Notes: a model not told the origin generated them from the sequence alone. Shown: positions 32,051 to 56,730, counted from the stretch's first letter. The stretch is DNA of 64,000 nt from an uncultured Myxococcales bacterium (GCA_964568275.1 CAZMRP010000001.1:8382-72381); one strand, 5' to 3'. Made by a program: numbers and translations.

Positions 32051-32512
32051 CTACTCCGACTCCCTCTCGCCCGGCGACCGTCTTGCCAAACGCTTCCGAG
32101 TCCGTCCCCGGTACGCCTCGCCCGGGTTGCCCTGCCGAGCCTCCGCGATCGCCGCCAGTTCGTCCAGATCGACCAGACGCTCGATCGCACGCTTCGGCTT
32201 CCTGGCTCCCTGCGCGTCGGCCGGGGCCTCCGGCGTCCGGGAGGGGGACGACTCGGCATCCTCACCAGTCGGAGCAGTCGCGACCCACTGGTCACGCAGC
32301 ATCTTCCGCTGCGCGCGAGGCGAGAGGACCTGCCCGCGCTGCACGACGTGCTGTTCGTTGAGCCATGCGCGAATCTCGCCGGGATCGAACCGCAGAACGC
32401 CGCCGACCTTCAGCGCCGGCAGCTTGCCGGCGGTCGCCAAGGCGTACACGGTTGAGCGCCCGACGCGAAGGAGTGCCGCGATCTCGGACACGGTCATCAA
32501 CGGCTCCATCAT
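32051..32512 (-). CDS. AlpA/excisionase-type HTH protein with Pro/Ala-rich tail
   Basis: MTVSEIAALLRVGRSTVYALATAGKLPALKVGGVLRF. Confidence 0.45.
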   Translation of the reverse strand: MMEPLMTVSEIAALLRVGRSTVYALATAGKLPALKVGGVLRFDPGEIRAWLNEQHVVQRGQVLSPRAQRKMLRDQWVATAPTGEDAESSPSRTPEAPADAQGARKPKRAIERLVDLDELAAIAEARQGNPGEAYRGRTRKRLARRSPGERESE

Positions 32513-34376: not shown

Positions 34377-34455
34377 TCAATCCACATCTTGACAGATGCG
34401 GTCCGCGTGGCTAACCTGATTGGTGGCTGGTCGAGACCAGCCACGGAGGTGAAAG

Positions 34456-34908
34456 ATGCCGAACGCGAGGGTCCACAAGGTGAGCGGCGGCGTGGCCGGC
34501 GCTGGCTACGCTTTGATCCGGGCGAAGGGACAGTCCGGGGGGCACGTCATCATCGAGACGTTTGGCGGCGCGGTAGGAGGCACTCTCGGAGGTTTGGCGC
34601 CCGACCGACTCGACCCGCCGCTCTGGCCCGGGCACCGAAGCGTCGGCCACGGCCTCGTGCCAGTGGCGGTCGCGGGGGATGCGGTGCGGCGGCGGGTGGA
34701 CGGATGGCAGCAGTCGCTTCGCGCGGAAGCCGAACGGCACGCGCAGACTGCTGCCGCTGCCACGGAGCCTCTCGACCGCCTCCTGCACGGCTTCCTGGAA
34801 CTTCTGTTTCGCTTCCTGGCGGGGCTCGCCGCGGGGTTCGCGGCGGGCTACATCTCCCACGTCGCGCTCGATGCATTCAGCCCGGCGGGCCTGCCGCTGT
34901 TGGCGTAG
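34456..34908 (+). CDS. DUF457/YdjM-like membrane-bound metal-dependent hydrolase
   Basis: Gly/Ala-rich membrane segments with HVALDAFSP at the C-terminus. Confidence 0.35.
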   Translation: MPNARVHKVSGGVAGAGYALIRAKGQSGGHVIIETFGGAVGGTLGGLAPDRLDPPLWPGHRSVGHGLVPVAVAGDAVRRRVDGWQQSLRAEAERHAQTAAAATEPLDRLLHGFLELLFRFLAGLAAGFAAGYISHVALDAFSPAGLPLLA

Positions 34909-34919
34909 GGAGGGCATTC

Positions 34920-36188
34920 ATGGCGGTGACGCAGGAAGAGCTCGGCCGGCGCCTGCGGGAAGCGCGCGAGGCGTGCGGGATGACGCAGGACGATGTCGCG
35001 AAGCACCTCGGCGTGTCCCGTCCGACCGTCACCCAGCTGGAGAACGGCAAGCGCCCGGTGTCGACGCTGGAGCTTGACCGGCTTGCTCGGCTCTTCGGCC
35101 GCGACCTCCGCGAGTTCGTCGGCGAGGAGTTCAGCGCCGAGAAGACCCTGGCCGCGCTGTTCCGGGGGCACGTGGAGGCCACCCAGGAGAGCGCAGTCCA
35201 GGAACGCCTACGGAACACGATCTGGCTCGCCCGCGAGCTAACGAACCTGGAGGAAGTCCTCTCGGTCGACCGGTCGTCGGCCAGCGCGCCCAGCTACCGC
35301 GTCCCGACCCCGAGCACGAAGTGGGATGCCGTCGTGCAGGGGTCGCGCGCGTCGGAGGAGGAGCGACGGCGACTCGGCCTGGGGGCGCTCCCGCTTGCGG
35401 GGATGACCGACCTGCTGGAATCCCAAGGCGTCCACGCGTTCCTCGTCGAGCTCCCCGACGACATCTCGGGCGTGACAATGAACGATCCCCGGATGGGGCT
35501 GATCGTGATCGCCAACACCTGGGATTCGGCGCTCCGTTGCCGCTTCTCGCTGGCCCACGAGTACGCGCATCTCCTCTTCGACCGGGAGCGGTTCGGGATC
35601 CTGAGCAGGACCAGCGACCGCGACGACCTCGCCGAGGTCCGGGCGAACTCCTTCGCGGCTGCGTTCCTCATGCCCGAGGAGGGCGTCCGCGCGTTTCTGG
35701 CCGGGCTCGGGAAGGGCCGGCCCAGCCGCGCCTCCGCGCAGGTGTTCGACGAGCACGGCGCCCTTCCCGCAGAAGGCCGAACGGCACCCGGCTCGCAGGA
35801 CGTGCAACTGGTGGATGTGGTGCGTCTGGCGCACAACTTCGGTGTCAGCCGTCTCGCCGCGCTCTACCGGCTGCTGAACCTCAAGCTGGTCACGCGGCCC
35901 GAGTTCGATGCCCTGAAGACCGAGGAGGAGCAGAAGGGCGCGCAGGCGGCCAAGCTGCTTGGAATCGACAAGCCGACCCACGACGACATCCAGGCCCAGC
36001 TCCGTCAGCGGGTCCTGAATCTCGGCCTGGAGGCGCTTCGGCGACAGCTCATCACCAGGGCCAAGCTCCTCGAGTTGGCGGACGCGATGTCCTTCTCAGG
36101 GAGTTCTGCCGCCGAGTTGGCGCGCTGGGTCGTCGGTAACGAGGGGGACCGCGACGGCGACGTGTTGCTCCCCGAAGGAGAAGCGTGA
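34920..36188 (+). CDS. XRE-family HTH fused to ImmA/IrrE (COG2856) zinc metallopeptidase
   Basis: LREAREACGMTQDDVAKHLGVSRPTVTQLENGKR (HTH) and SLAHEYAHLLFD (HExxH). Confidence 0.7.
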   Translation: MAVTQEELGRRLREAREACGMTQDDVAKHLGVSRPTVTQLENGKRPVSTLELDRLARLFGRDLREFVGEEFSAEKTLAALFRGHVEATQESAVQERLRNTIWLARELTNLEEVLSVDRSSASAPSYRVPTPSTKWDAVVQGSRASEEERRRLGLGALPLAGMTDLLESQGVHAFLVELPDDISGVTMNDPRMGLIVIANTWDSALRCRFSLAHEYAHLLFDRERFGILSRTSDRDDLAEVRANSFAAAFLMPEEGVRAFLAGLGKGRPSRASAQVFDEHGALPAEGRTAPGSQDVQLVDVVRLAHNFGVSRLAALYRLLNLKLVTRPEFDALKTEEEQKGAQAAKLLGIDKPTHDDIQAQLRQRVLNLGLEALRRQLITRAKLLELADAMSFSGSSAAELARWVVGNEGDRDGDVLLPEGEA

Positions 36189-37392: not shown

Positions 37393-38181
37393 GTGAGCGA
37401 CAAGAGCAAGATCGAGTGGACGGATGCTACGTGGAACCCCGTGCGCGGGTGCAGGAAGATCGGTCCGGGCTGCCTCCACTGCTACGCTGAGACGTTCGCC
37501 GAGCGGTTCCGCGGGGTGCCGGGCCACCCGTACGAGCAGGGATTCGACCTGCGCCTGGTCCCGCACAAGCTCGAGGAGCCGCTGCGCTGGCGTCGGCCGA
37601 GGATGGTGTTCGTCAACTCGATGAGCGACCTATTCCAGAACGGCGTGGATGACGCGTACATCGGACAGGTGTTCGAAGTAATGCGGCGCGCCGACTGGCA
37701 CACCTACCAGGTGTTGACGAAGCGCGCCGACCGTCTTCGCGACGTCCTCTCGCGCCCGGAATACTCGTGGGTCCTGGCGTCTCGGCACATCTGGATCGGC
37801 GTCAGCGTGGAGGACCAGAGGCACGGGATTCCGCGCGTCGCTCGGCTTCGCGAGACACCGGCCGCCGTTCGCTTCCTATCCCTCGAGCCTCTGCTCGAGG
37901 ATCCCGGGGATGTGGATCTCCGAGACATCCACTGGGTCATCGTGGGGGGCGAGAGCGGCCCCGGGGCACGGCCGATGCAGAAGGACTGGGTCATCTCCGT
38001 GCGCCGGCAATGCCGTGCTGCCGGCGTTCCCTTCTTCTTCAAGCAGTGGGGCGGTATCAACAAGGCCAAGGCGGGCCGACTGCTGCAGGGCCGCACGTAT
38101 GACGAGTACCCCGCCTTCCCCCACCTCGGAGCGGGCACGTGCAGTCGGCGCGGTTCGCCGCGACGCCAGGCTTCGCGGTGA
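37393..38181 (+). CDS. phage Gp37/Gp68 (DUF5131) family three-Cys-motif protein
   Basis: SKIEWTDATWNPVRGCRKIGPGCLHCYAE is a C-x5-C-x2-C motif. Confidence 0.6.
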   Translation: MSDKSKIEWTDATWNPVRGCRKIGPGCLHCYAETFAERFRGVPGHPYEQGFDLRLVPHKLEEPLRWRRPRMVFVNSMSDLFQNGVDDAYIGQVFEVMRRADWHTYQVLTKRADRLRDVLSRPEYSWVLASRHIWIGVSVEDQRHGIPRVARLRETPAAVRFLSLEPLLEDPGDVDLRDIHWVIVGGESGPGARPMQKDWVISVRRQCRAAGVPFFFKQWGGINKAKAGRLLQGRTYDEYPAFPHLGAGTCSRRGSPRRQASR

Positions 38182-38186
38182 CGCCG

Positions 38187-39305
38187 ATGGCAGACGAGTC
38201 GTCCACGACTTGGCCGATCGAACCCCACACCGAAGCCAAGCTCCGCATCCTGCGCACCTACCTCAACGCGTGGTTGCCGATCTTGGCCCGCTCCCCCAAG
38301 ACGCGTCGTGTCCTCTATGTTGACGGGTTCGCCGGCCCCGGGGAGTACTCCGGCGGCGAGGCCGGCAGTCCCGTCGTCGCGGTCAAGGCCTTCGTTGAGC
38401 ATGCCCTGACGATCCCCTCGCCCGTCCACATGCGGTTCATCGAGTCGAACCGGGACTGCCACGATCATCTCTGCCGGATCCTCGCCGGACTGCAGACGGA
38501 CATTGCGACCGCGACCGCCGACGGCACGAAGCGCCTTGACGTCCGCACGTTCTGCGACGACTGCGCCACAGTCCTCGCGAAGGCGGTCGACCAGATCGAG
38601 TTGCGCCAAGACGACCTCGGCCCCGCCCTGTTCTTCCTCGACCAATTCGGCTACTCGGACGTTCCGCTCGACCTGATTGCCCGCATCATGCGGCATCCGA
38701 GATGCGAGGTTCTCTCCTACCTGAGCGCCGACGGTCTGCATCGCTTCCTCGCCGACGAAACCAAGTGGCCAGCGATCACCCGTGCCTTCGGCGGGGAGTC
38801 GTGGCGGTCTGCGTTGTCGTGTCCGCTTGCGGGCCGCAATCTCGCCCTGGCGACCGAATTCGAACGCTCCCTTCGCCAGCAGGCCAACACCCGATTCGTC
38901 TGGCGTTTCTCGATGCACGGCAAGGACGACCGCCTTCTGTACTGGCTCTTCTTCTGTACCAACAGCGACCGCGGCTTGGAGGTCATGAAGGGGGCCATGA
39001 GGAAGGCGGATACGTCCGGCGGGTCGTTCAGGTTCTCGGACAGCACCTGCCCAGATCAGTTGGTTCTTCTTGATTCATTCTCCTCCGACTCGTTGAAGCG
39101 CCACCTTGTCGACTTCTTCGCCGGGCGCGACGTCACCCTCGAAGAGGTGCGCCTGCACGTCCTCGAGCACACGCCGGCCGTCGTGTACAAGAGGGAGTTG
39201 GCCGCCCTGGAGCGAGACGGCTTGCTCTGGCCCGCAGGCGGCAGCAAGCGCGCACGACCGGCGTTCAACGACCCGCAGCTGGTGCTGCGATTCAGGCAGA
39301 AATGA
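38187..39305 (+). CDS. three-Cys-motif partner protein TcmP-like
   Basis: WPIEPHTEAKLRILRTYLNAW...YVDGFAGPGEY; immediately downstream of Gp37/Gp68. Confidence 0.5.
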   Translation: MADESSTTWPIEPHTEAKLRILRTYLNAWLPILARSPKTRRVLYVDGFAGPGEYSGGEAGSPVVAVKAFVEHALTIPSPVHMRFIESNRDCHDHLCRILAGLQTDIATATADGTKRLDVRTFCDDCATVLAKAVDQIELRQDDLGPALFFLDQFGYSDVPLDLIARIMRHPRCEVLSYLSADGLHRFLADETKWPAITRAFGGESWRSALSCPLAGRNLALATEFERSLRQQANTRFVWRFSMHGKDDRLLYWLFFCTNSDRGLEVMKGAMRKADTSGGSFRFSDSTCPDQLVLLDSFSSDSLKRHLVDFFAGRDVTLEEVRLHVLEHTPAVVYKRELAALERDGLLWPAGGSKRARPAFNDPQLVLRFRQK

Positions 39306-39609
39306 GCAGGTCATTCACGCGCCCAGTCCGCAACAGCCGCCGATCCAGGCGGCAGGTCGTGTCGATCGCCGCCCCCGTCAAACCATGGGAGCAGTCCCGA
39401 GAAGCGAGTCCTTCGAGAGGCCCTCGTCGTCGGTGCCGGCGGCACCTGGACCGCGTCGACCTGGCCGTTCCGGCGGCCCGCCGCCCCGGCGTTTCTGTTG
39501 CACTCGACGGGTTTGACGTGGACGCGGCTGAGGCCGTACTCGATGCGGCGCCGCGACTCGTCACGCGTCAGCGGCCCTCTCGGTAGGAACGTGCACGGCG
39601 GGAGTTGGG

Positions 39610-40857
39610 TTGAGAGCGAAGATCCACCGGGGCGCGCACGAAGTCGGCGGCAACTGCATCGAGGTGGAGGCTGCCGGCAGCCGGATCCTGCTCGACCTCG
39701 GATGGCCGCTCGACTTGCCGCTCGACGCCGACCTCCCCCTCCCCGACGTGGCCGGTCTTGCCGGCGCTGACCCGTCCCTGTTGGGCGTGATCGTCTCCCA
39801 CCCACACTTCGACCACTTCGGGCTGGCGCGCAAGGTCGGGGTCCCCCTGCCCGTCTTCATCGGCGAGGCCGCGCATCGCATCCTGCGGGAGGCCGCGTTC
39901 TTCACCGGGACCGGGCTGGCGGTCGAGCCGGCCGGGTACTTGCGTCACCGCGAGCTGTTGACGCTCGGCCCGTTCACGATCACGCCGTACCTGATCGACC
40001 ACAGCGCGTTCGACTCGTACTGCCTGCTCGTCGAGGCGGAGGGCCGCCGGTTGTTCTACAGCGGCGACATCCGGGCCCACGGGCGCAAGCCCGGCACGTT
40101 CCAGGAACTGCTCCGGGATCCGCCCGCGAAGGTGGACGTGCTCGTCCTGGAGGGAACGAACATCCGTCCCGGCGTGGACGGCACCGAGCGCGTGGTCTCC
40201 GAGACCGACGTCGAGAACGCCTGCGTCGAGACGTTCAAGGCCGCGACCGGCATCGTGCTCGCGCTCTTCTCCCCGCAGAACATCGATCGGCTGGTCACGG
40301 TGTACCGGGCGGCCATCCGCTCCGGCCGCGACCTGGTGCTCGACCTGTACGGGGCCGCCGTCGCCGCTGCCACGGGTCGCGACACGATCCCCCAGGCCAG
40401 CTGGGATCGGGTGCGCATCTACCTGCCGAACAGCCAGCGGACCAAGGTGATCGAGTCCGGCGCGTTCCACCGGACGGATGCGGTGCGGCCGCGGAGGATC
40501 TACCCGGAGGAGTTGAGCGAGCGACCCGGCAACTTGGTCATGATCTTCCGCACGAGCATGGCCCGGGAGATGGAGAGAATCGGCTGCCTAGACGGCGCGC
40601 ACGCGGTGTGGTCGATGTGGCCAGGGTACCTCGAGGAGCCGTCGGGCGAGAAGCTGAAGGCGTTCCTCGACCGGCTCGGAATCGGGATGAGCATCCACCA
40701 CGCGAGCGGCCACGCCGCGATCCCCGACCTGCAGCGACTCGTCGCTGCTCTCGCCCCCGGGAAGGTGGTGCCGATCCACTGCTCGGCCGGTGATCGCTTC
40801 CACGAGTTCGTGGCTGGCGTCGAGCAGCATGCCGACAGCGAGTGGTGGGAGGCGTGA
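39610..40857 (+). CDS. MBL-fold metallo-hydrolase
   Basis: VSHPHFDHFGLA (HxHxDH); TTG start as in the ORF track. Confidence 0.6.
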   Translation: MRAKIHRGAHEVGGNCIEVEAAGSRILLDLGWPLDLPLDADLPLPDVAGLAGADPSLLGVIVSHPHFDHFGLARKVGVPLPVFIGEAAHRILREAAFFTGTGLAVEPAGYLRHRELLTLGPFTITPYLIDHSAFDSYCLLVEAEGRRLFYSGDIRAHGRKPGTFQELLRDPPAKVDVLVLEGTNIRPGVDGTERVVSETDVENACVETFKAATGIVLALFSPQNIDRLVTVYRAAIRSGRDLVLDLYGAAVAAATGRDTIPQASWDRVRIYLPNSQRTKVIESGAFHRTDAVRPRRIYPEELSERPGNLVMIFRTSMAREMERIGCLDGAHAVWSMWPGYLEEPSGEKLKAFLDRLGIGMSIHHASGHAAIPDLQRLVAALAPGKVVPIHCSAGDRFHEFVAGVEQHADSEWWEA

Positions 40858-41564
40858 TGGGCAAGCCGAGCGTTCCGACCGACGAGCTCCGCTGGAAGGT
40901 CGATGGCGCCGTGGCGGACCTGTGCCAGGAAGTAGCCGAGGAGCCGCTCTGCTTCTTCTCGGAGGCCGACCTCCAGGCGATGATGTACATGCGGCTTCGC
41001 CAGATCTTCCCCCGGTCCGTGCCTCTGCGGGAGGCGCGCGGTCCCGGGGCCAAGACGCGGTTCACGACCTCGCAGGTCCACCGCGAGTACGGGGCCGGCG
41101 AGCGGCGGAGGCTGGACCTTGCCGTGCTTGCCGCCGCGCAGTTCGCGCTGGCTGACCGCTTCTACAAGGACGGTGCCGACTACCTCGTCCCCGCCTTCGG
41201 CTTCGAGTTCGGCACGGAGAAGATCGGTGACGCTACTTCGGAGCACATCCGAAGCGACGTTGGAAAGTTGCAGCGCTGTGACCGCGGATACCTGGTCCAC
41301 ATCTTCCGCGATATGGCCGTTGCCGACGAGGGAACGGATCTGCGAGCCGCGGCCGAGCAGAGGATTGATAGGATCTTCCGCAGGGTCGCCGGCGCGATCA
41401 CTCCTCCGAACAACGTGCGCGCCGTGCTGCTCGTTGTCGGGGTCACCCACAGCCGGAAGAACCTCCGCGGGCGGTGTCAACTGCTCGATCCTCGCACGGG
41501 GGAGTGGCAAAGGATCAACGCCCGCCACGTTGGGCGAAGGGTTCTGAAGCTGCTGTCCGCCTGA
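40857..41564 (+). CDS. hypothetical protein, translationally coupled to the MBL hydrolase
   Basis: ATG overlaps the TGA of the MBL gene (TGATG). Confidence 0.35.
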   Translation: MGKPSVPTDELRWKVDGAVADLCQEVAEEPLCFFSEADLQAMMYMRLRQIFPRSVPLREARGPGAKTRFTTSQVHREYGAGERRRLDLAVLAAAQFALADRFYKDGADYLVPAFGFEFGTEKIGDATSEHIRSDVGKLQRCDRGYLVHIFRDMAVADEGTDLRAAAEQRIDRIFRRVAGAITPPNNVRAVLLVVGVTHSRKNLRGRCQLLDPRTGEWQRINARHVGRRVLKLLSA

Positions 41565-41718
41565 GCAGAGCCAAGAAGGCGTCGCCACCGGTCCTCGTCC
41601 CGTCCTGCGGGGCGAGTGGTTGGTCGCCTTCGACGTCCTTCGCGAGCGACCCTGCCCGCCGATGACGGCGCCGCGGTCGTCGACGCCACCTGCCCGCCGA
41701 TGGGCGGTTCCGCGCGGA

Positions 41719-44709
41719 TCATTTCGGCTGTGGACTGCGCTTCCGTAGCCGATGCCCCTCGCCCGCCCGCGCGTCCGCCGTCCCATCCACATCCGACCGC
41801 AGCACGAGCCGATGGGCGCGCTCAGCCAACCCGCCACCTTCCAGGATCCGACGCCGAAGCCAGAGGATGGCCCAGGAAGGCAACGGGACGGACGGCTGCT
41901 CAAGCGAATCGAGTAGGGTCCCGTGCAACGATTCGGGTGCCGCGAAGTACCAACCCGATTCGCCCTCACGACCCTCGACCGCCTCGCGGGCATGGGCCAG
42001 CGCAAGGTCGGGGGCCAAGCGCCACACGATCCGCTGGAAGCCCCCCGGGGCTCGGCTGTCGCGCGCAAGCAGTTCGATCCACCGGACGTCTTCGCCGTCG
42101 ACGTGGGCGTCGACGCGACGCTCGTCCCCGCGGAAGGCGAGGTCGACCGCGATGCCGGCCAGGGCGGCCGCGCCGGGCTGGTGCTCGGTCGCGTATTGGA
42201 CGAGCGGCAGACGGAACCGGGGCGGAAGGTCGAGGACGCGGGCCACCGCCTCGGCGTCCTTGGGCACCAGTTCCGCCGCGAAACGCTCGGGAGGCACGTT
42301 GTCTTCGACCAGCACGGCCAAGCGTGCATCCATCTCAAGGCGGCCAAGCGCCGCAACCGCTCCGCCGCCCGCGCTCGCAGCCGCGGTCCAGAGAGTTTCC
42401 ACAACCGCCGCGCGCTGGTCCGGCGTAAGCTGGCAGACCTGCTGCGCGATGAACGCGCCTCCCCACGCGGTCCCGATGATGCGATCGATCTGTTCGTGCG
42501 TCAGCACCCATCGCGGATGGCGTCGGTGAGCCGCGAGCAGGACCGCAGGAAGCAGGATCGCCGGCGGTGGCGTAGTCACGCTCTCGTCCCGGCAAGCGTC
42601 GACGACGTCGGGGGCCATCCCAAGCAGTCGGTCGAAGGCCGGGGGGAGCGGCGGCACGTGGGCCAGACCCTCGTGCATCCAGCGACTCCACGACCGCCGA
42701 GGGAGCGTTCCGGGGGGACGGCGGGAGTCCTGATGCGGTTCGCTCGGCAGTCCCGGTTCGCCGAGCCCCTGGTGCGCCAACGGCGCCAACTTCCCGAGCG
42801 TCGGCCCCCCAGCGACCCATCCGGGAAAGAGCCATGCCCGGCCGTCGTCGATCTCGCAGCGCGGACCGTAGAGGCTCCAGGCCCAACAGCACGCGACCCA
42901 CGCGCCGTCGCCCTCGCCACCGCCCGGCCGCGTCAGCGGCGCGACGCCCGCCAAGCCTGTGAACCGCGAGGTCAGCAGCCCCCGCTGCAACTGCCAGAGA
43001 GGCGCCAGATCGTCCGCCAGCCGACGGCCCGGACCGAGCCGGCGCCCGACTTCAGCAAACAGGGCCTCGATGGCGCCGACCGCTCCAAGATCGGAGACGT
43101 CGAACTTCGCGACAGCCTCCCGGATGACGCGGAGCAGGTCCGCCTCCGGCACGTCAGCCAGTTCGGCGTCCACGAACGCCCGCCGATCGGCGTTCGCCGC
43201 CCAGCGGCCCCAGATGTGCGGATCTCCCCTGAGGATCTCGTCCCGTACTCGGATTCTGTGGAAACGCGTCGAGACCCAGTGCGGGTGCATGATGAGGCCG
43301 TTGCCGGCCGGACGGAGCAGTCGCAGCGGCAACAAGCACTCGATCGCCTCGGCCGACGGACGGCGCTGCACGATGCGCATCGCCTCCGCCTTGCGCGCCT
43401 TCTTCTCCCGGGGGCCGCGTGCCGCACTGACAGAATCCAGGGCGGCCTCGACGTCCTGCAACGACGGAGCCGGCGAGACGGTGCCCGTCGGTGCGAGCGA
43501 TGCCCATGCCTCCCGCGACAGCGGGCCCTGGAGCGGCGACTCGACGTGCGCCAAGCGGGAGACGGCAAGCGCCCGGACGAGATCGACGGCCCATGCGCGC
43601 AGCCAGACGCTCTGCTCGGTCCCGTCCGAGGCTTCGCGATCCACGCGCTGACGCAGGTACCTCTCGGCGACGTCCCGCTTGAACGACGGAACCCCGGCGT
43701 CGTTGGCGAACGCGCACAACGGCACCACGTCGCCCGGCGTCGCGAACATCTCGTGGCGGGGATCCACGTCGTCCATCCACCCGATGAGTTGCTCGGCATC
43801 CAGCAGGGACTCGCGGTCATCGACCCGGCCGGCAAGCCAGCGCACCAAGCGGGGCCTCCATCCCTCCGCAGGCCGCCAGCGCTCCTCGAGCCATCTCACG
43901 TTCTGGACGGAGGCGCCACGCGGGTCCTTTCCGGCTGACACGCGCGGCATCGGGAAAGGGGCAATTACGATGACGTCCTCGCGACGGTCGAGCCGTGCCA
44001 GGATGCTCAGGTCCGTGTCGGGGTCGGGTGCGTCGACGCCCAGCAGGATCGGCCTCCTTTCGTCGAACAGCGCGCCAGCATCGGCAAGGTGCAGCACCTC
44101 CTTGATGGATGCCGTTCCCCGAACGCGATGCCAGTGCAGCACGAAGCTGCGCCCTGCGCCCGGCGGCGCGATGATCCACTGGCGGTAGTTCACCCATTTC
44201 GGGTCGAACCACTCCGGGGTGCAGAGCGCCAGGGGATCCTCCGTACCCGGGTTGAAAGGACGCAGCCGAGGGAAGTCCGGCGAGGGAAGCAGGTCGCGAG
44301 GAAGCGGCAGTTCGGCGTAGCGAAGTCTGCCAGCCTGTTCCAGAGCACGGATCGCGGTCCGTTCGCGGGCGTCCCACCAGCCGGCACGGCCTTTTTCCAG
44401 ATCGCCGAGACGGTTGCTGATCGCGACGGCCTTCGGTGGGGGGTCGCGGGGCGCGATCTTCCGCCACTCCTTCTCGATGCGGCCGGCAAGTTGCAGCTTC
44501 GACATCTTGGTGAGTTCGGCGAATCGGAATAGCGGGGTTGTGCTCATGGAGCAAGCCTGGCACGGACCACCCCATGCGTCAACTGCGTATTCACCAGTGA
44601 ACATGGTGAATGGTTCGGTGGCACCGACCAGGGAAACGGACCATGCTTTCTGGCAGGAGGTGGCTGATGCCAGAAGCACACGAACCGGGCCCGAACCGTC
44701 GCGATCCAT
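41719..44709 (-). CDS. large hypothetical protein (~940-996 aa); start uncertain, 44547 or 44709
   Basis: Long ORF of ordinary composition; no motif recognised. Confidence 0.4.
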   Translation of the reverse strand: MDRDGSGPVRVLLASATSCQKAWSVSLVGATEPFTMFTGEYAVDAWGGPCQACSMSTTPLFRFAELTKMSKLQLAGRIEKEWRKIAPRDPPPKAVAISNRLGDLEKGRAGWWDARERTAIRALEQAGRLRYAELPLPRDLLPSPDFPRLRPFNPGTEDPLALCTPEWFDPKWVNYRQWIIAPPGAGRSFVLHWHRVRGTASIKEVLHLADAGALFDERRPILLGVDAPDPDTDLSILARLDRREDVIVIAPFPMPRVSAGKDPRGASVQNVRWLEERWRPAEGWRPRLVRWLAGRVDDRESLLDAEQLIGWMDDVDPRHEMFATPGDVVPLCAFANDAGVPSFKRDVAERYLRQRVDREASDGTEQSVWLRAWAVDLVRALAVSRLAHVESPLQGPLSREAWASLAPTGTVSPAPSLQDVEAALDSVSAARGPREKKARKAEAMRIVQRRPSAEAIECLLPLRLLRPAGNGLIMHPHWVSTRFHRIRVRDEILRGDPHIWGRWAANADRRAFVDAELADVPEADLLRVIREAVAKFDVSDLGAVGAIEALFAEVGRRLGPGRRLADDLAPLWQLQRGLLTSRFTGLAGVAPLTRPGGGEGDGAWVACCWAWSLYGPRCEIDDGRAWLFPGWVAGGPTLGKLAPLAHQGLGEPGLPSEPHQDSRRPPGTLPRRSWSRWMHEGLAHVPPLPPAFDRLLGMAPDVVDACRDESVTTPPPAILLPAVLLAAHRRHPRWVLTHEQIDRIIGTAWGGAFIAQQVCQLTPDQRAAVVETLWTAAASAGGGAVAALGRLEMDARLAVLVEDNVPPERFAAELVPKDAEAVARVLDLPPRFRLPLVQYATEHQPGAAALAGIAVDLAFRGDERRVDAHVDGEDVRWIELLARDSRAPGGFQRIVWRLAPDLALAHAREAVEGREGESGWYFAAPESLHGTLLDSLEQPSVPLPSWAILWLRRRILEGGGLAERAHRLVLRSDVDGTADARAGEGHRLRKRSPQPK

Positions 44710-46091
44710 CGGCGGCCGTCAAGGCGGCGCTATCGCGTCCCCTGGGACGCCGTCGTCACGTCGTCCTCGTGGCTCTGGACTGGACGCGCCCCAAGGACCC
44801 TCGCTCCCCCCTGGGACACGCGTCCCTGGTGGCGGCCCTGAACCAGGCACGCGCCGTCGAGGTCAGCGAGTTGTCCTTCGCCGTCAACGAATCGACCGCG
44901 CGCCCTGATGACATCGCGCGGCAGATCCTCGCTCGGGCCAACGGAGTCCCGAGCCGCCAGGTCGACGTGGCCATCGGAGTCTACGTCTGGAACGAACCGC
45001 TCGTGGTCGAGGTTCTGCGGGCGCTCCGGCAGTCCGGCTTCGCAGGTCGCATCGGCCTCGGCGGCCCGCAGATCACCTACGCTGGCCCGGACCTGGAAGC
45101 CCGGTACCCGGAGGCGGACTTCTTCATCCGCGGCACCGCAGAGTCGGCCCTTGCCTCCGTCGCCGCCGCCGACCGGCGCGTCGACGTCCCCGGCGTGCAC
45201 TGGGCCGGAGACGCCGATGATGGTGTCGTTGCCCAGGTCGACCCGTCGACCTTGCCATCGCCCTTCCTCTCCGGCGTGATCGACGTCCGGGGGCAGCGCT
45301 TCCTTCGCTGGGAGACGCAGCGCGGCTGCCCCTACAGCTGTTCGTTCTGCCAGCATCGCGCGGCCAAGGAACGGTTCGCGTGCCAAGCGTTCGCCCTGGA
45401 TCGGCTCCGCCGCGAGATCGCGCTGTTCGTCGAAGCGGGCGTCGAGGACATCGCCGTGCTCGACCCCGTGTTCAACCTGGGCAAGACCGACCTTCCCGTT
45501 CTGGAGGAGTTCCGCCGCCTGGGGTTCCGCGGGCGGCTATCCCTGCAATGCAGAGCCGAACGCGTGCAGCCGGCGTTTCTCGACGCGTGCGCCGGCATGG
45601 ATGTGCGCCTGGAGTTCGGTCTTCAGACGATCCATGCCGCTGAGGCGGACGCGGTGCTGCGGCGGAACGACCTGGACAGGATCGACGGCGTGCTCGCCGA
45701 GGTACGCCGACGCGGAATCAAGCACGAGGTATCCCTGATCTACGGGCTGCCGGAGCAGACGTTGGGCTCCTTCCTGGCGTCCGTAGAGTGGTGCCTTGCG
45801 CGACGTGTTCCGGTCGTCAAGGCCTTCCCGCTGCTGCTCCTGCGAGGGACACAACTGGCCCAGACCAGCGATCGATGGGCGCTGCGCGTGCAGCAGGGGG
45901 GCATGCCAGCCGTGGTCGCCTCCGACAGCTTCGATGAGCACTCCTGGCGTCAGATGGCGCGTGTCGCCGATGCGCTTGCAGCGACCGAGGGGCGACACCC
46001 GGCTAACGTCGAGGAGTTGCTGCGCAGAGCCGAGTCCTGCACTCCCGCACAGGAAAGCATGCAGCAGGCACGGCATGGGTGGCTGGCATGA
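44667..46091 (+). CDS. B12-binding-domain radical SAM protein
   Basis: IGLGGPQITY (B12-domain GGPH-like) and RGCPYSCSFCQH (CxxxCxxC); RBS AGGAGG before ATG 44667. Confidence 0.75.
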   Translation: MPEAHEPGPNRRDPSAAVKAALSRPLGRRRHVVLVALDWTRPKDPRSPLGHASLVAALNQARAVEVSELSFAVNESTARPDDIARQILARANGVPSRQVDVAIGVYVWNEPLVVEVLRALRQSGFAGRIGLGGPQITYAGPDLEARYPEADFFIRGTAESALASVAAADRRVDVPGVHWAGDADDGVVAQVDPSTLPSPFLSGVIDVRGQRFLRWETQRGCPYSCSFCQHRAAKERFACQAFALDRLRREIALFVEAGVEDIAVLDPVFNLGKTDLPVLEEFRRLGFRGRLSLQCRAERVQPAFLDACAGMDVRLEFGLQTIHAAEADAVLRRNDLDRIDGVLAEVRRRGIKHEVSLIYGLPEQTLGSFLASVEWCLARRVPVVKAFPLLLLRGTQLAQTSDRWALRVQQGGMPAVVASDSFDEHSWRQMARVADALAATEGRHPANVEELLRRAESCTPAQESMQQARHGWLA

Positions 46092-46702
46092 GCATCGAGA
46101 AGCCGGTCTTCGTCGTCTTCGAAGGGCTTGATGGTTCCGGGAAGAGCACCGTCGCCAAGCTGGTCGCCGACGCCCTGGATGCGATCTTGATGACGACGCC
46201 ATCCGTCCGCGTCCGGGAATTCCGCGATGACATCATCGCCGACTTCGGAGGTTCGCAAGAGGCGGCGCAGCTGTTCTACCTCGCGACCGTGTTCGCCGCG
46301 TCAAGGGCCGCGGACGGGCACATCGCCGCGGGTCGAAGCGCGGTGCTCGACCGGTACTTCCTGTCCACGCAAGCCTACGCGAGCTTCCGGGGCTCCGTCC
46401 TCCGCGACGACGACGTCCAGCGGCATCTGCTGCCTGCTGACTTGACCGTCTTCCTGCAGGCGCCTCTGGATGTCCGCCGGGTCCGCGTTTCCGAACGTGG
46501 CGGGTCCGCCGCCGACCGGGAGACTCTGCTTCCCTCCGGCGACTCGGCGTTGCGGCGAGAGTACGAGACCAGATTCGACCTACCGGTCGTCGGACGGCTT
46601 CTGATCCTCGATTCGGCCACAGCGAGTCCCGATGAGCTTGCCGTGCAGGTGATGCAGGAACTCGACGGCGCCTCGCGACGACGGCGCGCCGGTTCGACTT
46701 GA
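46088..46702 (+). CDS. thymidylate (dTMP) kinase-like P-loop kinase
   Basis: VVFEGLDGSGKST and DRYFLST; ATG overlaps rSAM TGA (ATGA). Confidence 0.7.
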   Translation: MSIEKPVFVVFEGLDGSGKSTVAKLVADALDAILMTTPSVRVREFRDDIIADFGGSQEAAQLFYLATVFAASRAADGHIAAGRSAVLDRYFLSTQAYASFRGSVLRDDDVQRHLLPADLTVFLQAPLDVRRVRVSERGGSAADRETLLPSGDSALRREYETRFDLPVVGRLLILDSATASPDELAVQVMQELDGASRRRRAGST

Positions 46703-46722
46703 CAGGCGGCGGGAGGCCCAAG

Positions 46723-48540
46723 ATGCTGAGCAAGGCGATGCGCGGAACGGTGACGAGGTGGGGGACGCGCGGCTACGGTTTCGTCCGCCCGGACGATACC
46801 GACATCGACGCGTGGGTGCACTTCCGTTTCCTGGCCGAACCCAACTGGGTGCCCTCCACCGGCGAACGCGTCGAGTTCGAGCTGAAGGAACTGCCCGACG
46901 GCCGCTACCAAGCCTGGTTTCTACGACCCGCCAGGCAGACCCTCCCGCCGGGGCCACCGGTGGAAGGAACAGGCGACGCCGGGACTGCCACGCCAGGGTC
47001 CGGACTCGGTCCGCCGGCCGGCAGCCGCAGCCTGGGCACCCTGGGCGAGGCCCTTGTACGTGCCGGCATCGCGCGCGTCGAGGCCAGCGACGCGGCGTCG
47101 GCGGCACCAACCGCCGAACCGGCTACCGCGCCGCCTGCCGTTCTTCCCGCTCCGGTCACGAAGCTCCAGGATCGGCTGGCGTTGCACCGGGCCGCCGCCG
47201 AGCAGAAGTCTGCCACCCTGCGCGCCGAGGCCGAGACCTTCCGCCAGCGCATCGCGGAACTGGAGGCGAAGGCGGGGCAGGTCGCGCTGCGGCTGGAAGA
47301 GCACCAGGCTCAGGTTCTCCAGGAGGAATCCTCCCTCGTCGCGTCGGCCGTCTCTACCGTCGCGGACGAGTTCGAACGCGCGCTTGGCGAACGACGACGA
47401 CTGCTGGATTCGATCCGTCCGTTGCGCGAGGACGCCGTTGCCCGGCTCGGGCGGCAGCCCGTGGAGGAGTACGAAGCCATCCGCCGACGCCTTGGGCCAG
47501 ACGTCGAGGGTCGAGACGAACTCGAGCGGCGAGCATATCAGGCGCTTGAGCGGGAGATGAGGCCAAGCCTAGTAGAGTTGGCCGCCGGCATGGACGCGCT
47601 TGACGCTCTGGCTCCGCCGAACGTCCGGTTCACCCTGTTCGTGGCCGGGACAGATGCCCCCTCTGCCATCTTCGTGAGCCCTCTCCACGGGCGGCGGGCG
47701 CCGACCGAGGACAACCTGGACGACGTTGTCGATGACATTCGCTGGCGCGTCGGCTGCGTGTTCTGGCAGACGGTGGAACGCGCCGCGTGCGAGCTCGGCG
47801 CCGGGGGCGGTGCGACCGAGTACGGCACCGTCGCCGGCTCGCTGGCCGCGCGCCTCGGCGGGTGCGACCCCGATCTGTTCGGCATCCTGCTCGACGAGGC
47901 GTGGGCCTGCCGACCCTTCCTCGAACAGGCGAACGTGGACTTCGGGTTCGATGTCGTCTCCGGGCTCGCGCCCCGGTTCGAGCCGGAGGCGCCGAACTCG
48001 GCCGAGGCGGAACGGGCGCCATGCGCCGAGAAGAACTGCAAAGGTGGGGCGTTGCCGGAGGTCGCGCTCCGGCTCGGGCTGTCGATTCGTGACCTCGTGG
48101 TAGCCTTGCAGCACTTCGGCCTGCCGCCGGCCGACGACACTGTGGAGCCCGGAGCGGAAGCGTCTCTGCGGCTGCTCGTTGGGGTTGCCGATCAACTCGC
48201 CCTGCCCGAGGCGGGAGCGGAGCCGGCGGAACCGGCGCCTGCCGGTGAGCCGCCTTCGGGTCCGCGCGCGGCGGCGGGTCGGTTGCTGGCCAAGCTCCTG
48301 CGCGACCGTCGCATCGGCGGCAGGCACACCGGCATCGAGCACGTCTACGGGCACCACTTCGCGGACGAGGAGAAGCACGTGGCGCGGCGCATCGTCGAGT
48401 TCTTCGAGCGCGACGGGCTCCTGATCACGAAGTACAACGAGGGAGCCCATCACGTGTCGGTCAACCCACGCCGGCTGCGCGAGGTCGGGGAGATCATCGG
48501 CCGAACCTGGAGCCGGATGGCGGAGATCGACGCGCTGTAG
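46723..48540 (+). CDS. cold-shock-domain (OB-fold) N-terminus protein with long Ala/Glu-rich coiled-coil and C-terminal globular region
   Basis: GTVTRWGTRGYGFVRPDD...VHFRF. Confidence 0.5.
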   Translation: MLSKAMRGTVTRWGTRGYGFVRPDDTDIDAWVHFRFLAEPNWVPSTGERVEFELKELPDGRYQAWFLRPARQTLPPGPPVEGTGDAGTATPGSGLGPPAGSRSLGTLGEALVRAGIARVEASDAASAAPTAEPATAPPAVLPAPVTKLQDRLALHRAAAEQKSATLRAEAETFRQRIAELEAKAGQVALRLEEHQAQVLQEESSLVASAVSTVADEFERALGERRRLLDSIRPLREDAVARLGRQPVEEYEAIRRRLGPDVEGRDELERRAYQALEREMRPSLVELAAGMDALDALAPPNVRFTLFVAGTDAPSAIFVSPLHGRRAPTEDNLDDVVDDIRWRVGCVFWQTVERAACELGAGGGATEYGTVAGSLAARLGGCDPDLFGILLDEAWACRPFLEQANVDFGFDVVSGLAPRFEPEAPNSAEAERAPCAEKNCKGGALPEVALRLGLSIRDLVVALQHFGLPPADDTVEPGAEASLRLLVGVADQLALPEAGAEPAEPAPAGEPPSGPRAAAGRLLAKLLRDRRIGGRHTGIEHVYGHHFADEEKHVARRIVEFFERDGLLITKYNEGAHHVSVNPRRLREVGEIIGRTWSRMAEIDAL

Positions 48541-52267: not shown

Positions 52268-54004
52268 GTGATCGATACCTCCGCTCTCCTCTTCTCGATC
52301 CGTGATCGATCCGACGGCAACCATCGCCGCCCTCGCCGCCCCCACGCCCGTCGGGCATCGGGTCAACGGAACGACGCGAACGGCGCCGCCACGTCGACCA
52401 CCTCGTCCGGCGTCGCCTCATCACCACCACGCCCGGCGTGGGCATCGCAGCCAGCTCGACGAACTCGGTGTCCTCAACGGCCCCGATGCCGACGAGGAGC
52501 AAACCGGACGAGGTCCGGGGGCGACGAGCCGACAGCGCTGCTCGCCGGAAGCGACAGGCACATCGAGGGGCTGACGGCCCGCGCCTCACGACATGCTATC
52601 GTCTTGCTGCGTCCCGGCTCGGCCCCGTGGAAGCCTCCGATAGCGTGGCCGAGTGCCCAAGTGGCCAGCGGCCAGCGAGTTGGTCGGGGCAGGAGGGATG
52701 CGGGTGGGGCGGGAGACGTGGAGGCGATGCGTTTCGCAGGAGACCGCTGGATCGACTCCGCAGACGGGCAGCGCGCACGGCAACGCAAGCGTGACGCTGT
52801 CCGTGTGTTCGTCCGATCGCTGGGTGAGCCACGAAGCAAGGGCGCGATCAAGGCCGGGGAGAAGGACGCCTTCCGACGCGCCCTGGCCGAAGGCCTTGGT
52901 CATCGTCAGCGCTTTCGCGCGCCAGTGATGCTCGAGCTCGATCTCTATCCAACGGCCAGCAACCCGCCGGAGATCCACACGGTCGCGAAGAACTACATCG
53001 ACCTCCTGTACACCGGAGACGCGTCCGAACCCAAGCTCCTGGGCGACGATCGTCAAGTGCAGTATCTCGCCGTCAGGTACATCGCGGGTGCGGCCTCGGA
53101 ACCCTCCATCTTCCTCCGCGCCAATCGGATGTCGTGCTTTCGCGAAGAGGTTCGACTCGTTCAACGAATCCGGAGCGACAGACACGACTCGTGGCACGAC
53201 GAGGACGACGAGGAGAAGGAGGACGAGGAGAACCCCATCGACGAATTGCGGAGGTGGGAGCGACTCCGGCCTCGGATGGCGTCGGCGTCGGAAAGGGAGC
53301 TCTTCGATCTCAACAGGCGCTTCCTGCTCGCGCAAGTCCAACAGCGGCGGTTGGCCTCAACCGAGCGCTTCGTGCACTCGATTCTCGTCGATCTTCTCGG
53401 TCTGGATCAGGCCACCGTGCTCCCCGCGTTCTCCGTCCGCGGCGCTCGGTTCCCGGCGCTGCATCTCGGCGAGGCGTTCCGAAGCATGCTCTTCTCGTCC
53501 ACCGTTTCGTTGCGGCTTGGCGACCTGCCGGCCGAACATGGTGACGGCGACGCATTTCAAGAAGCGATGCGGGTGGCGTTGCGCACGTTGCGCGCTTCGC
53601 AGCCGTCGCTGTTCCCGCTCTTCGTGCAACTGGCCGTCGTGATCCTCGTGGTCCCGCCCGACCCGAGGATGCCTGGGCACCCTCCGGACCTCGACAACCT
53701 CGCCCGCCACGTGATCCCCCTGGTCCACTCGGTGCTGCAGCCACCAGGCACGACGCCGCTGCTGGTGGACCCGCAGACCGTGGCCGAGCCGCGTCTTCGC
53801 GAGTTCTTCGAACGCGAGGTCAGGTTGGCCCGCCGGCTGCCGAAACACCACGTCACGCGCTTCGAGGTCGTTCGGCTGCCGCGGATGCCCGGCGACCCTC
53901 GATCGGGATCCGTTCGTCTCGCGTTGTGCGACGGGACCGAAGGGCGCAGCTTCGCCGAGTTCGTGGCGAAGACGATCGACAACTGGATCGAGGCCGACGA
54001 CTAG
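52268..54004 (+). CDS. hypothetical protein (578 aa), downstream of the HNH gene
   Basis: Long ORF of ordinary composition. Confidence 0.4.
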   Translation: MIDTSALLFSIRDRSDGNHRRPRRPHARRASGQRNDANGAATSTTSSGVASSPPRPAWASQPARRTRCPQRPRCRRGANRTRSGGDEPTALLAGSDRHIEGLTARASRHAIVLLRPGSAPWKPPIAWPSAQVASGQRVGRGRRDAGGAGDVEAMRFAGDRWIDSADGQRARQRKRDAVRVFVRSLGEPRSKGAIKAGEKDAFRRALAEGLGHRQRFRAPVMLELDLYPTASNPPEIHTVAKNYIDLLYTGDASEPKLLGDDRQVQYLAVRYIAGAASEPSIFLRANRMSCFREEVRLVQRIRSDRHDSWHDEDDEEKEDEENPIDELRRWERLRPRMASASERELFDLNRRFLLAQVQQRRLASTERFVHSILVDLLGLDQATVLPAFSVRGARFPALHLGEAFRSMLFSSTVSLRLGDLPAEHGDGDAFQEAMRVALRTLRASQPSLFPLFVQLAVVILVVPPDPRMPGHPPDLDNLARHVIPLVHSVLQPPGTTPLLVDPQTVAEPRLREFFEREVRLARRLPKHHVTRFEVVRLPRMPGDPRSGSVRLALCDGTEGRSFAEFVAKTIDNWIEADD

Positions 54005-55134: not shown

Positions 55135-56730
55135 ATGGCCAGCGACATCTTGAACTCGGAGGAGATGTCCACGCTGTTGACGCTCGTCGAGGAGGCAGCG
55201 CGTTCAACGCCGGAAGGGGTCAAGTACTTCGTTGAGCCAGCCGAGGGGGCACTGCGCCGCGCGACGAGCCGCCGACACCACATCGTCTTCGGCCGGCGCG
55301 GATCTGGCAAGTCCAGCCTTCTTCGCAAGGCCGCAGCAGACCTCACCGTCGATCGCCGTCCAATAGCGTGGATCGACCTGGAGCCTTTCAAGAACCACAG
55401 CTACCCGGATCTGCTCCTCAGCATTCTCATCGCGACCTTCAGGGAGTTCCGTCTCTGGCTCGAAACCGCCGCTGTCATGCCGGCGACCAAGCTGAGCTTC
55501 TGGAAGAAGCTGTTCGGGAAGAAGCCCACGCGGAAGGCGTTCGACAAGCCAGGCTGCGCGACGTTGGTGGGACGCCTCGCCGCACAACTCGTCGAACTCG
55601 AGCAACAGCTTCACGCCGCGGATGCCGCCAGTGTCTCGACGGAGGCCACCGTGCTTCGAGGAGTGGAGCGGTCGGATACCGTCGGCGTCTCGGCAGCTGC
55701 GAGCGTTCCGGGGGGGACGCTTGCGGCCAGAGGCGAACGGTGTTCGAAAAGCGCAGAGTCCGCCAAGCAAGTCGAACACGAGGAGTTCCGCCGCTCCAAG
55801 GTGGAGTTCCTGCAACATCATGTCCTCGACTACCAGAGCATCTTCGACGAAATGGCGAGGATCTCGGATGGCGATTCGTACTTGTTCTTGGATGACCTCT
55901 ACCACATCCGCAAGAGCGACCAGCCGCGGGTCCTCGACTACTTCCACTCCGTCGCGAAGGGCCACAGACTGTGGCTGAAGACAGGGACGATCCGCCACCG
56001 GACGGAATGGTACGTCCACGGCAATCCCCCTCTCGGCGTGAAGCTCGGGGACGACGCTGATGACATCGATCTGGACCTGACGCTCGAGAAGTACGCGCTG
56101 GCCAAGGAGTTCCTCACCAAGATCCTGGCGAACTTCGCGAGAACCGCCGGCCTCTCGGATCTCGGCGACTTCCTGACCGACGGCGCCGTTGACCGGCTGG
56201 TGCTCGCGAGCGGCGGAGTGGCCAGGGACTTCCTCTCGGTGTTCCGGCGGGCTGTCACGGTGGCCCGAGAACGGGGTGATGGCCCACGGGGTCCGAAGGT
56301 CGGCGCTGAGGATATCAACATGGCCGCTGGCGAATACGATTCGACCAAGCGCGACGAGTTCAAGCGGGATGTACACAGCGAGGACGAGGCCTCGCTGGAC
56401 GCCGTGTTCCGCGAGGTGCGCGCTTTCTGCCTGGACGAGATCGAAACCAACTGCTTCCTTCTGGCAAAAGACGCCAAGGGAGCGACGGTCGAGGCAATCC
56501 ACGAACTCGTTGATCTCAAGTTGCTTCACCTGATCCGCTCGCGCGTCACCGTGAACACGCGGCAGGGTCAGTTGTTCGAGGCGTACATGCTGGATCTCAG
56601 CCAATACGCCGGGGAACGGAAGCGCCGCGGGTTGAACATGATTGAGTTCTGGCATGCCACCTCGAAGGACGACCTGCGCAAGGCGTCGTTCATTCTGGAC
56701 GCGGAGAAGAGGGCAAGCACGGTGGAGTGA
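55135..56730 (+). CDS. P-loop NTPase (AAA/ORC-like ATPase)
   Basis: Walker A IVFGRRGSGKSSLL; Walker B-like LFLDDLYHI; RBS GGGGAGG. Confidence 0.6.
   Translation: MASDILNSEEMSTLLTLVEEAARSTPEGVKYFVEPAEGALRRATSRRHHIVFGRRGSGKSSLLRKAAADLTVDRRPIAWIDLEPFKNHSYPDLLLSILIATFREFRLWLETAAVMPATKLSFWKKLFGKKPTRKAFDKPGCATLVGRLAAQLVELEQQLHAADAASVSTEATVLRGVERSDTVGVSAAASVPGGTLAARGERCSKSAESAKQVEHEEFRRSKVEFLQHHVLDYQSIFDEMARISDGDSYLFLDDLYHIRKSDQPRVLDYFHSVAKGHRLWLKTGTIRHRTEWYVHGNPPLGVKLGDDADDIDLDLTLEKYALAKEFLTKILANFARTAGLSDLGDFLTDGAVDRLVLASGGVARDFLSVFRRAVTVARERGDGPRGPKVGAEDINMAAGEYDSTKRDEFKRDVHSEDEASLDAVFREVRAFCLDEIETNCFLLAKDAKGATVEAIHELVDLKLLHLIRSRVTVNTRQGQLFEAYMLDLSQYAGERKRRGLNMIEFWHATSKDDLRKASFILDAEKRASTVE

Follow-up and report, generated by a model that had tools for sequence, protein, structure and literature searches.

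Within a 64,000-nucleotide stretch of DNA from an uncultured Myxococcales bacterium (GCA_964568275.1 CAZMRP010000001.1:8382-72381; hereafter the window), positions 44667–48540 encode a radical S-adenosylmethionine (rSAM) enzyme of the B12-binding type, a thymidylate kinase-like protein and a protein with a cold-shock domain (CSD). Comparative analysis identified the first two genes as a recurrent, translationally coupled pair that corresponds to the phage defence candidate PDC-M51 of the PADLOC database, and the CSD gene as a neighbour that very probably does not belong to it. Taken as a whole, the locus is best read as a mobile two-gene PDC-M51 defence cassette that would make a modified nucleotide, with a separate CSD gene alongside; we assign this reading a probability of roughly 40%. 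A modified nucleotide fits best because an rSAM enzyme of the cobalamin type and a nucleoside monophosphate (NMP) kinase remain tightly coupled in a cassette that is mobile and occurs in defence settings. A defensive role of the cassette appears probable; action by nucleotide methylation specifically is doubtful.

Gene structure, catalogue status and spread of the rSAM–kinase pair

The three genes are arranged as follows:

44667–46091, + strand: rSAM enzyme, 474 aa (ATG at 44667, stop TGA at 46089–46091), matching PDC-M51A
46088–46702, + strand: kinase, 204 aa (ATG at 46088, stop TGA at 46700–46702), matching PDC-M51B
46723–48540, + strand: CSD protein, 605 aa (ATG at 46723), with its cold-shock domain at the N terminus and a long helix predicted after it

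A GGAGG box lies upstream of the rSAM start codon (44656–44660), and the stop codon of the rSAM gene overlaps the start of the kinase gene by 4 nt (ATGA, 46088–46091). The kinase and CSD genes are separated by 20 nt containing GGGAGG at 46711–46716. G+C content at third codon positions (GC3) is of the coding type in all three open reading frames (ORFs), at 0.80–0.83, and public gene calls agree on the starts, giving 474, 204 and 605 aa (the rSAM start being that of P0001). The initial annotation of this DNA had described a coupled three-gene operon here; the positions it gave for the genes, the ATGA junction and the gap of about 20 nt were all recovered.

Both members of the pair are recognized by PADLOC hidden Markov models (HMMs). 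The rSAM enzyme matches PDC-M51A at E 4.3e-141 (ORF residues 48–461 against profile positions 4–416 of 420) and the kinase matches PDC-M51B at E 2.4e-55 (residues 10–181 against positions 3–174 of 191); the gene order, A then B, adjacent and with a 4-nt overlap, is that of the PDC-M51 cassette. PDC stands for ‘phage defence candidate’, a set of cassettes found within BREX, DISARM or type I restriction-modification (RM) systems (Payne et al. 2024, bioRxiv 10.1101/2024.01.29.577857). The same study added 145 untested candidates to PADLOC, among them PDC-M51, defined as cassette CAS_00169 (FAM_01858>>FAM_00353) with 55 RefSeq occurrences and no proposed mechanism; one of its figure legends cites an example of a radical-SAM enzyme with a deoxynucleoside kinase (bioRxiv 10.1101/2024.01.29.577857). 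Our literature search found no paper testing PDC-M51 and none on this rSAM family in phage defence. The two-gene core described here is identical to PDC-M51 in content, order, strand, adjacency and defence-island setting beside DISARM, and the adjoining CSD gene, whose product has no PADLOC match, is not part of the cassette. The locus is a further member of a catalogued, so far uncharacterized candidate family, and the earlier suggestion of a system not described as such does not hold for its core.

At E ≤ 1e-10 the rSAM family exceeds 1,425 clusters, but its distribution is sparse, with 133 confirmed hits among 185,579 species represented by one genome each. Its hosts are mostly Myxococcota, together with Bradymonadia, Planctomycetota, Betaproteobacteria, marine group II archaea and metagenome-assembled genomes (MAGs) of the Legionellales type. 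We compared 80 rSAM loci, 70 of which extend at least 700 nt downstream, enough to judge the presence of the kinase with an HMM built from a trimmed alignment. A full-length kinase gene was present in 27 of these 70 loci (39%), always immediately downstream and on the same strand, and in 25 of the 27 the two genes share a 4-nt (A/G)TGA overlap. This overlap is not a chance arrangement, because it recurs in loci from several phyla. Two independently traced kinase homologues, from Rhodocyclus tenuis and from a metagenome contig, also follow an rSAM gene with a 4-nt overlap, and the top 120 kinase homologues include no rSAM–kinase fusion. When the ORFs within 6 kb of the rSAM gene were clustered all against all, the kinase emerged as the sole conserved neighbour; a neighbour cluster present in 14 loci consisted of generic Ser/Thr kinases, a common type in Myxococcota, and was rejected. 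The linkage proposed at the outset between these two genes is therefore conserved and translationally coupled across phyla.

Since about 60% of the rSAM loci lack the kinase, it is best regarded as a facultative helper. Its presence is scattered on the rSAM tree, with complete absence from the Cystobacterineae, Legionellales-type and archaeal clades, and kinase fragments remain directly after the rSAM gene in two loci (L048, ~9350–9463; L053, ~9323–9466). Such remnants and the patchy presence fit repeated loss of a helper gene.

The genomic surroundings of the pair vary widely. Flanks share no ORF families, even between closely related rSAM enzymes, and 141 flanking proteins from 47 loci match 147 distinct Pfam families, among which no biosynthetic theme stands out; scattered matches to defence models such as SoFic, MkoA, PDC-S03 and HNH occur among these proteins. 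Individual loci adjoin Mrr, AAA_21/DUF4435, CHAT or DUF4258 genes or an IS66 element, and others adjoin AbiEii, integrases, REase-ARP, Xre-RES or a DEAD/methylase protein. No rSAM homologue was seen in an antibiotic cluster or in one for ribosomally synthesized and post-translationally modified peptides (RiPPs), the setting that the initial annotation had named as evidence against its proposal, and the pair occurs in defence or mobile contexts both here and elsewhere.

A gene for the phage regulatory protein Phage_CP76 adjoins the pair in the Rhodocyclus tenuis genome and in the unrelated metagenome contig (L131, 7984–8460, − strand; L133, 11510–12019, + strand); it could be a linked regulator or the marker of a prophage or satellite carrier. 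Sequenced phages gave no match to the rSAM family, and plasmids yielded only a distant KedN5-family gene. The only relatives in IMG/VR lie on 41 viral contigs (L090–L130; GC 0.41–0.46), some longer than 200 kb, and are 21–25% identical to the window rSAM enzyme. These B12-rSAM-like genes share WETQRGC or (L/I)I(F/Y)GLPxQT motifs, have no thymidylate kinase-like gene nearby and form a separate, phage-borne branch.

The radical-SAM enzyme and its kinase partner

The rSAM protein matches Pfam Radical_SAM at 3e-14 and B12-binding at 1e-5, the latter below threshold (25.4 bits against a cut-off of 32.1) and confirmed as a domain by the fold. An alignment of 120 homologues served both for residue conservation and for an AlphaFold2 (AF2) model, which is confident (mean predicted local distance difference test score, pLDDT, 91.8) and shows a Rossmann-type N-terminal domain with strands at 30–38, 64–72, 99–104 and 128–132. 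Foldseek placed CysS and TokK as the best structural matches (E 1e-27; template modelling (TM) score 0.72–0.74; 20–22% identity over ~445–465 aligned columns), followed by TsrM, AprD4, MgmA and OxsB. Sequence profiles returned the same two enzymes (TokK 3.7e-27, CysS 7.3e-27) with alignments that span the cobalamin domain. The nearest NCBIfam family is KedN5 (NF033712), of which the protein is not a member (84.8 bits against a cut-off of 700). These CysS/TokK matches in fold and profile bear out the original description of a class-B, B12-domain enzyme of about 475 aa. Viperin identity was considered and rejected: PADLOC gave no pVip match, PDC-M51A being the sole hit, and a viperin-like structure appeared only at rank 47 (TM 0.31).

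Residue conservation sharpens this assignment. The cysteines of the CX3CX2C cluster motif (C221, C225, C228), the GGPQ motif (G132-G133-P134-Q135) and Y106-V107-W108 are invariant across the 120 homologues, as are many arginines and a family-specific motif, W39-T-R-x-K-D-P-R-x-P-L-G-H51, in the loop after strand 1. In profile alignments GxYVW pairs with CYVW76 of TokK and CYVW of CysS, and W108 sits in the loop just after Rossmann strand 3 (99–104), like Trp76 of TokK. According to a recent review, Trp76 occupies the lower axial face of the TokK cobalt, and the same is predicted for CysS and ThnK, with an Asn-bound water in this place in OxsB and an Arg in TsrM (PMC13331322). Sequence and model thus point to a TokK/CysS-like, cobalamin-type radical-SAM enzyme, and one that is probably a methylase because it keeps the invariant Trp found beneath the cobalt of TokK; W108 supports real use of cobalamin and a TokK-like radical methyl transfer.

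The Rossmann cobalamin domain, the rSAM barrel, CX3CX2C, GGPQ and YVW are common to this enzyme and to TokK, ThnK, CysS and KedN5. Apart from its low identity to these proteins, it differs in being ~200 residues shorter, in lying outside antibiotic clusters and in having an NMP kinase as partner. At 474 aa against 626–681 aa, its TM score normalized to the target falls to 0.53–0.57, and the profile alignments to TokK and CysS stop at profile positions 360 and 412 of 457.

Among cobalamin-dependent rSAM enzymes, OxsB acts on a (deoxy)nucleotide to give an antiviral nucleoside analogue, oxetanocin-A; enzymes of this kind can therefore act on nucleotides. The likeness of OxsB to the window enzyme is at the level of the fold (E 3e-16, TM 0.65), with no sequence match. 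OxsB is also larger (~740 aa), carries an extra N-terminal domain, has the Asn-water under its cobalt and performs ring contraction rather than methylation; its partner OxsA is an HD phosphohydrolase, whereas the enzyme here has a kinase partner and no adjacent HD-domain gene. OxsB-like ring contraction was rejected as the principal model, since the similarity is confined to the fold and the residue under the cobalt differs.

The second protein is thymidylate kinase-like, as first annotated: it matches Pfam Thymidylate_kin (PF02223) at 1.4e-12 (48 bits against a 27-bit cut-off), and in profile searches its alignment with solved thymidylate kinases runs over the full length (4e-17). It falls below the cut-off of the NCBIfam dTMP kinase family TIGR00041 (49.1 against 83.25 bits) and also matches the PADLOC VakA kinase model at 3.7e-23. 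Invariant in the family are P-loop residues E12, D15, G16, G18 and K19, the DRY residues D88, R89 and Y90, and the lid arginines R130, R133 and R137; LSTQAY is also kept. The kinase thus has in common with bacterial Tmk the fold family, the P-loop EGxDGxGK(S/T), DRY, LSTQAY and the lid arginines, and differs from it in two places: REPGG is replaced by (T/A)TP(S/G), and Phe-x3-Arg by Tyr-x3-Val. At the latter, Y64-x3-V68 aligns with F-x3-R of the Thermus thymidylate kinase, and the valine is nearly invariant. We take the aromatic-x3-Arg of thymidylate kinases to contact thymine, with the Arg at thymine O4 (F70/R74 in M. tuberculosis thymidylate kinase). Because this contact is replaced by Tyr64-x3-Val68, the phosphate acceptor is probably not plain dTMP, and the base pocket differs from that of true dTMP kinases. 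Bacterial Tmk is moreover the housekeeping copy, whereas the kinase here is an accessory gene.

The genetic link between an rSAM gene and an NMP kinase recalls viperin, as the initial annotation had proposed by analogy. A linked NMP kinase of the CMPK2/thymidylate kinase superfamily accompanies 12% of bacterial viperins (bioRxiv 10.1101/2023.09.13.557418), so that linkage is facultative in both cases (12% there, 39% here), and both viperin and PDC-M51 occur in defence contexts. The analogy is one of organization and not of membership: viperin lacks the N-terminal cobalamin-type domain of the enzyme described here, and its 3'-dehydration contrasts with the methyl transfer predicted for the latter.

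The cold-shock-domain gene and the surrounding island

The CSD protein scores just under the Pfam CSD cut-off (1e-5; 25.6 against 27 bits), but its family profile matches solved CSD structures at 3e-7 and its sequence contains RNP1-like GYGFV and RNP2-like WVHF motifs, in agreement with the cold-shock oligonucleotide-binding (OB) fold first ascribed to the third gene. An N-terminal five-strand OB domain and RNP1/RNP2-like motifs are shared with cold-shock and Y-box proteins, which are ~70 aa long; the 605-aa protein differs in its long helical region and its unmatched C-terminal part. A coiled-coil-like helix is predicted for residues 143–295 (in an AF2 model of low confidence, pLDDT 51), and the C-terminal 300 residues are conserved in the family and have no Pfam or PDB relatives. 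A word-indexed search retrieved 7 close homologues, and an exhaustive HMMER search with the C-terminal half retrieved 61 cluster representatives, mostly of 450–690 aa (clusters at 50% identity, from 1.84 billion representatives; P0248–P0307). Pfam CSD was matched by 12 of the 29 relatives that were aligned at full length.

Could the three genes nevertheless form one system, in which the CSD/coiled-coil protein binds nucleic acid and serves the pair as sensor or effector? They lie on one strand with a gap of only 20 nt, a ribosome-binding site and no terminator-like site found between them on the + strand, so that the CSD gene is probably co-transcribed with the pair in this genome, and the arrangement is the same in two identical contigs that come from separate sequencing runs. 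Conservation points the other way. None of the 80 rSAM loci contains a relative of the CSD protein, of the 996-aa protein described below, of the 285-aa or 240-aa proteins or of the metallo-beta-lactamase (MBL) fold nuclease of this locus, and no CSD-protein relative stands beside the kinase homologues examined. Conversely, five relatives of the CSD protein from four independent contexts (L081, L082, L083–85 and L135) have no rSAM or kinase gene nearby; several of them lie close to DISARM-like SNF2/methylase genes or MZB helicases, in defence-island-like settings.

The comparison with L082, a Deltaproteobacteria MAG, is the most direct. By blastn, window positions 39598–40848 (MBL/beta-CASP nuclease gene) correspond to L082 1539–2789 at 84% identity, and positions 46738–48540 (CSD gene) to L082 4106–5926 at 73% identity. 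The 5.9 kb that separate these flanks in the window have no counterpart in L082, which holds 1.3 kb of unrelated DNA instead (tblastn agrees), and homology starts again 15 nt into the CSD ORF, all DNA before this point being replaced. The intervening DNA comprises:

40849–46737: variable segment holding a 240-aa ORF, the divergent gene below and the rSAM–kinase pair
41719–44709, − strand: divergent gene encoding at most 996 aa, the immediate upstream neighbour of the rSAM gene, supported by its ORF and coding GC3

Because the longest ORF of the divergent gene overlaps the rSAM start by 43 nt, its true start probably lies further in, downstream of 44709 in the direction of transcription; searches of Pfam, PADLOC and NCBIfam gave nothing significant for its product. 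Since the conserved flanks enclose unrelated DNA in L082, the kinase–CSD junction is the edge of a variable segment and not a conserved operon joint, and the slot between the MBL/beta-CASP and CSD genes looks like a cargo-exchange hotspot. By all indications the CSD gene is an independent, stand-alone gene for a putatively nucleic-acid-binding CSD-type protein, found beside the cassette only in this genome. A three-gene system is largely refuted by this comparative genomics and appears very improbable; that the unit consists of two genes, with the CSD gene separate, we regard as highly probable. The proposed operon thus stands for the rSAM–kinase unit and falls for the CSD gene, whose linkage is not conserved, one half of what the initial annotation had itself named as grounds for refutation. 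In sum, its observation is confirmed and its interpretation is partly supported.

The window as a whole is a defence island:

3809–4630, − strand: tyrosine integrase (phage-integrase family), upstream of DISARM
11486–12643, + strand: tyrosine integrase (phage-integrase family), upstream of DISARM
13619–15457: DrmB
15454–19428: DrmA
19445–20227, − strand: Methyltransf_35 putative O-methyltransferase (Pfam 1e-46), between DrmA and DrmMI
20443–21864, − strand: HATPase_c_3 (GHKL-type) ATPase, between DrmA and DrmMI
21861–25739: DrmMI
25736–29065: DrmD
29415–31034: DrmMII
30925–32295, − strand: HNH_2 endonuclease, between DISARM and PDC-M30
33573–34376, − strand: DUF429 protein, between DISARM and PDC-M30
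34389–36188, + strand: regulator with helix-turn-helix and peptidase-M78 domains, RmrA/CapP-like, between DISARM and PDC-M30
37393–39305, + strand: PDC-M30/PDC-M41 pair, a PADLOC candidate formed by a DUF5131 protein (Pfam 3.5e-98) and an overlapping partner of 388 aa
51143–52258, + strand: HNH protein, PDC-M68A- and SAVED-HNH-effector-like
52268–54004, + strand: 578-aa protein with no assignment, following the HNH gene
55135–56730, + strand: ORC/Cdc6-like ATPase
56912–57865, + strand: EEP-family nuclease/phosphatase, following the ORC/Cdc6-like gene
58578–60350, − strand: DitA-like DUF5677 protein

The five Drm genes make up a complete DISARM set. Two tyrosine recombinase genes upstream of it suggest that the island is a present or former integrative element; a tRNA scan of the whole window found no tRNA gene. 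The proteins encoded at 19445–20227 and 20443–21864 matched no PADLOC model and are defence candidates because their genes are embedded in the DISARM operon (‘guilt by embedding’).

Proposed function and competing explanations

We propose that the pair is a self-contained, horizontally mobile two-gene cassette in which the rSAM enzyme would most probably methylate an unactivated carbon by means of a 5'-deoxyadenosyl radical and methylcobalamin. The substrate would be a nucleotide. The kinase may either feed the rSAM enzyme or, as we judge likelier, phosphorylate a modified NMP that host kinases accept poorly, and the resulting nucleotide, probably C-methylated, would poison phage nucleic-acid synthesis. 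The pair would then be an analogue of viperin with its CMPK2-type kinase, working by other chemistry.

Several observations weigh against this proposal. The kinase is the only link to nucleotides, and it is missing from ~60% of the rSAM loci; TokK, CysS and KedN5, the closest characterized enzymes, methylate pantetheine- or carrier-bound antibiotic intermediates and not nucleotides. About 200 C-terminal residues of TokK, a large helical domain that closes the active site, are missing, and because of this absence the substrate must differ from that of TokK. Binding of cobalamin is itself a prediction: AprD4, of similar fold and size, works without cobalamin, and an Rfam scan of the whole window was empty, with no cobalamin riboswitch. 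As to defence, PDC-M51 is a prediction from genomic association only. The flanks of the 47 loci are mixed in content, with only a modest share of recognized defence genes, and one Cystobacter locus looks metabolic or regulatory, with NUDIX/NrtR, AraC and TonB receptor genes.

These points lend some substance to a small non-immune module, metabolic or secondary-metabolite in nature, that stands in the island by coincidence. Its product might be, for example, a methylated nucleoside or cofactor that the cell needs itself or employs as an antibiotic to attack prey or competitors. The closest characterized enzymes are, after all, antibiotic-pathway methylases, many hosts are predatory or host-associated (Myxococcota, Bradymonadia, Legionellales), some loci have no recognizable defence neighbours amid flanks of modest defence-gene density, and the defensive role of PDC-M51 is itself a prediction. 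We nevertheless consider such a module unlikely, given that no biosynthetic, export or resistance genes are conserved beside the rSAM gene, the kinase being its sole conserved neighbour, that the family is so sparsely distributed (the 133 confirmed hits noted above), that the cassette recurs beside restriction, abortive infection, toxin-antitoxin, integrase and insertion sequence genes, and that the family was first recovered embedded in BREX, DISARM or RM systems. A cassette that is defensive and acts on a nucleotide might also do so without methylation, by viperin- or AprD4-like dehydration of a ribose diol or by an OxsB-like rearrangement, yielding a deoxy, didehydro or ring-contracted terminator. 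Viperin sets a precedent for antiviral dehydration; AprD4, a radical-SAM 1,2-diol dehydratase of similar size, is close in fold (Foldseek E 3e-19, TM 0.70–0.73; NCBIfam 2.6e-7), and OxsB, a cobalamin-dependent enzyme acting on deoxyadenosine phosphates, is a Foldseek match at E 3e-16. However, the sequence similarity to AprD4 is limited to the rSAM core (203–361), whereas TokK and CysS align also through the cobalamin domain, including GGPQ and YVW; the invariant Trp under the cobalt is the signature of the TokK, ThnK and CysS methylases and differs from the Asn-water of OxsB (PMC13331322), and OxsB was not found by sequence at E ≤ 0.01. On balance, other radical chemistry seems improbable.

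That the rSAM enzyme modifies a macromolecule (DNA, RNA or protein), with a regulatory or polynucleotide-directed kinase, is highly unlikely. B12-type rSAM enzymes with protein substrates are known, and one of them, the glutamine methylase MgmA, is matched at E 8e-17. Fold neighbours at E 1e-11 to 1e-12 include MiaB and RimO, whose substrates are tRNA and protein, and the many invariant arginines could bind a nucleic-acid backbone. Yet every element of the NMP-kinase signature (P-loop with Asp, DRY, lid arginines) is present in the kinase, whose alignment with thymidylate kinases covers its full length, Pfam detected no recognizable nucleic-acid-binding domain such as TRAM or PUA in the rSAM protein, and no partner specificity or target gene is conserved.

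A more specific version of the modified-nucleotide cassette is speculative: the pair may represent a second, chemically distinct radical-SAM route to antiviral nucleotides, in which a methyl group is placed on a carbon of the sugar or base, a kinase with an altered pocket accepts the product and phage polymerases are stalled, a natural counterpart of the synthetic 2'-C-methyl antivirals. Among the literature found, a mechanism that combines a TokK-like methylase signature with an altered kinase pocket is new. The cassette is easy to test, being no more than two genes in 2.0 kb, with conservation that reaches from Myxococcota to Betaproteobacteria.

The analysis corrects the gene content of this candidate to two genes, not three, and assigns the CSD/coiled-coil protein to a separate, rare family. 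If the proposed function is true, cobalamin-dependent radical methylation would join the chemistry of innate immunity, which already includes dehydration by viperin. It would also give the class-B radical-SAM methylases their first nucleotide substrate, and the products may be new natural polymerase inhibitors.

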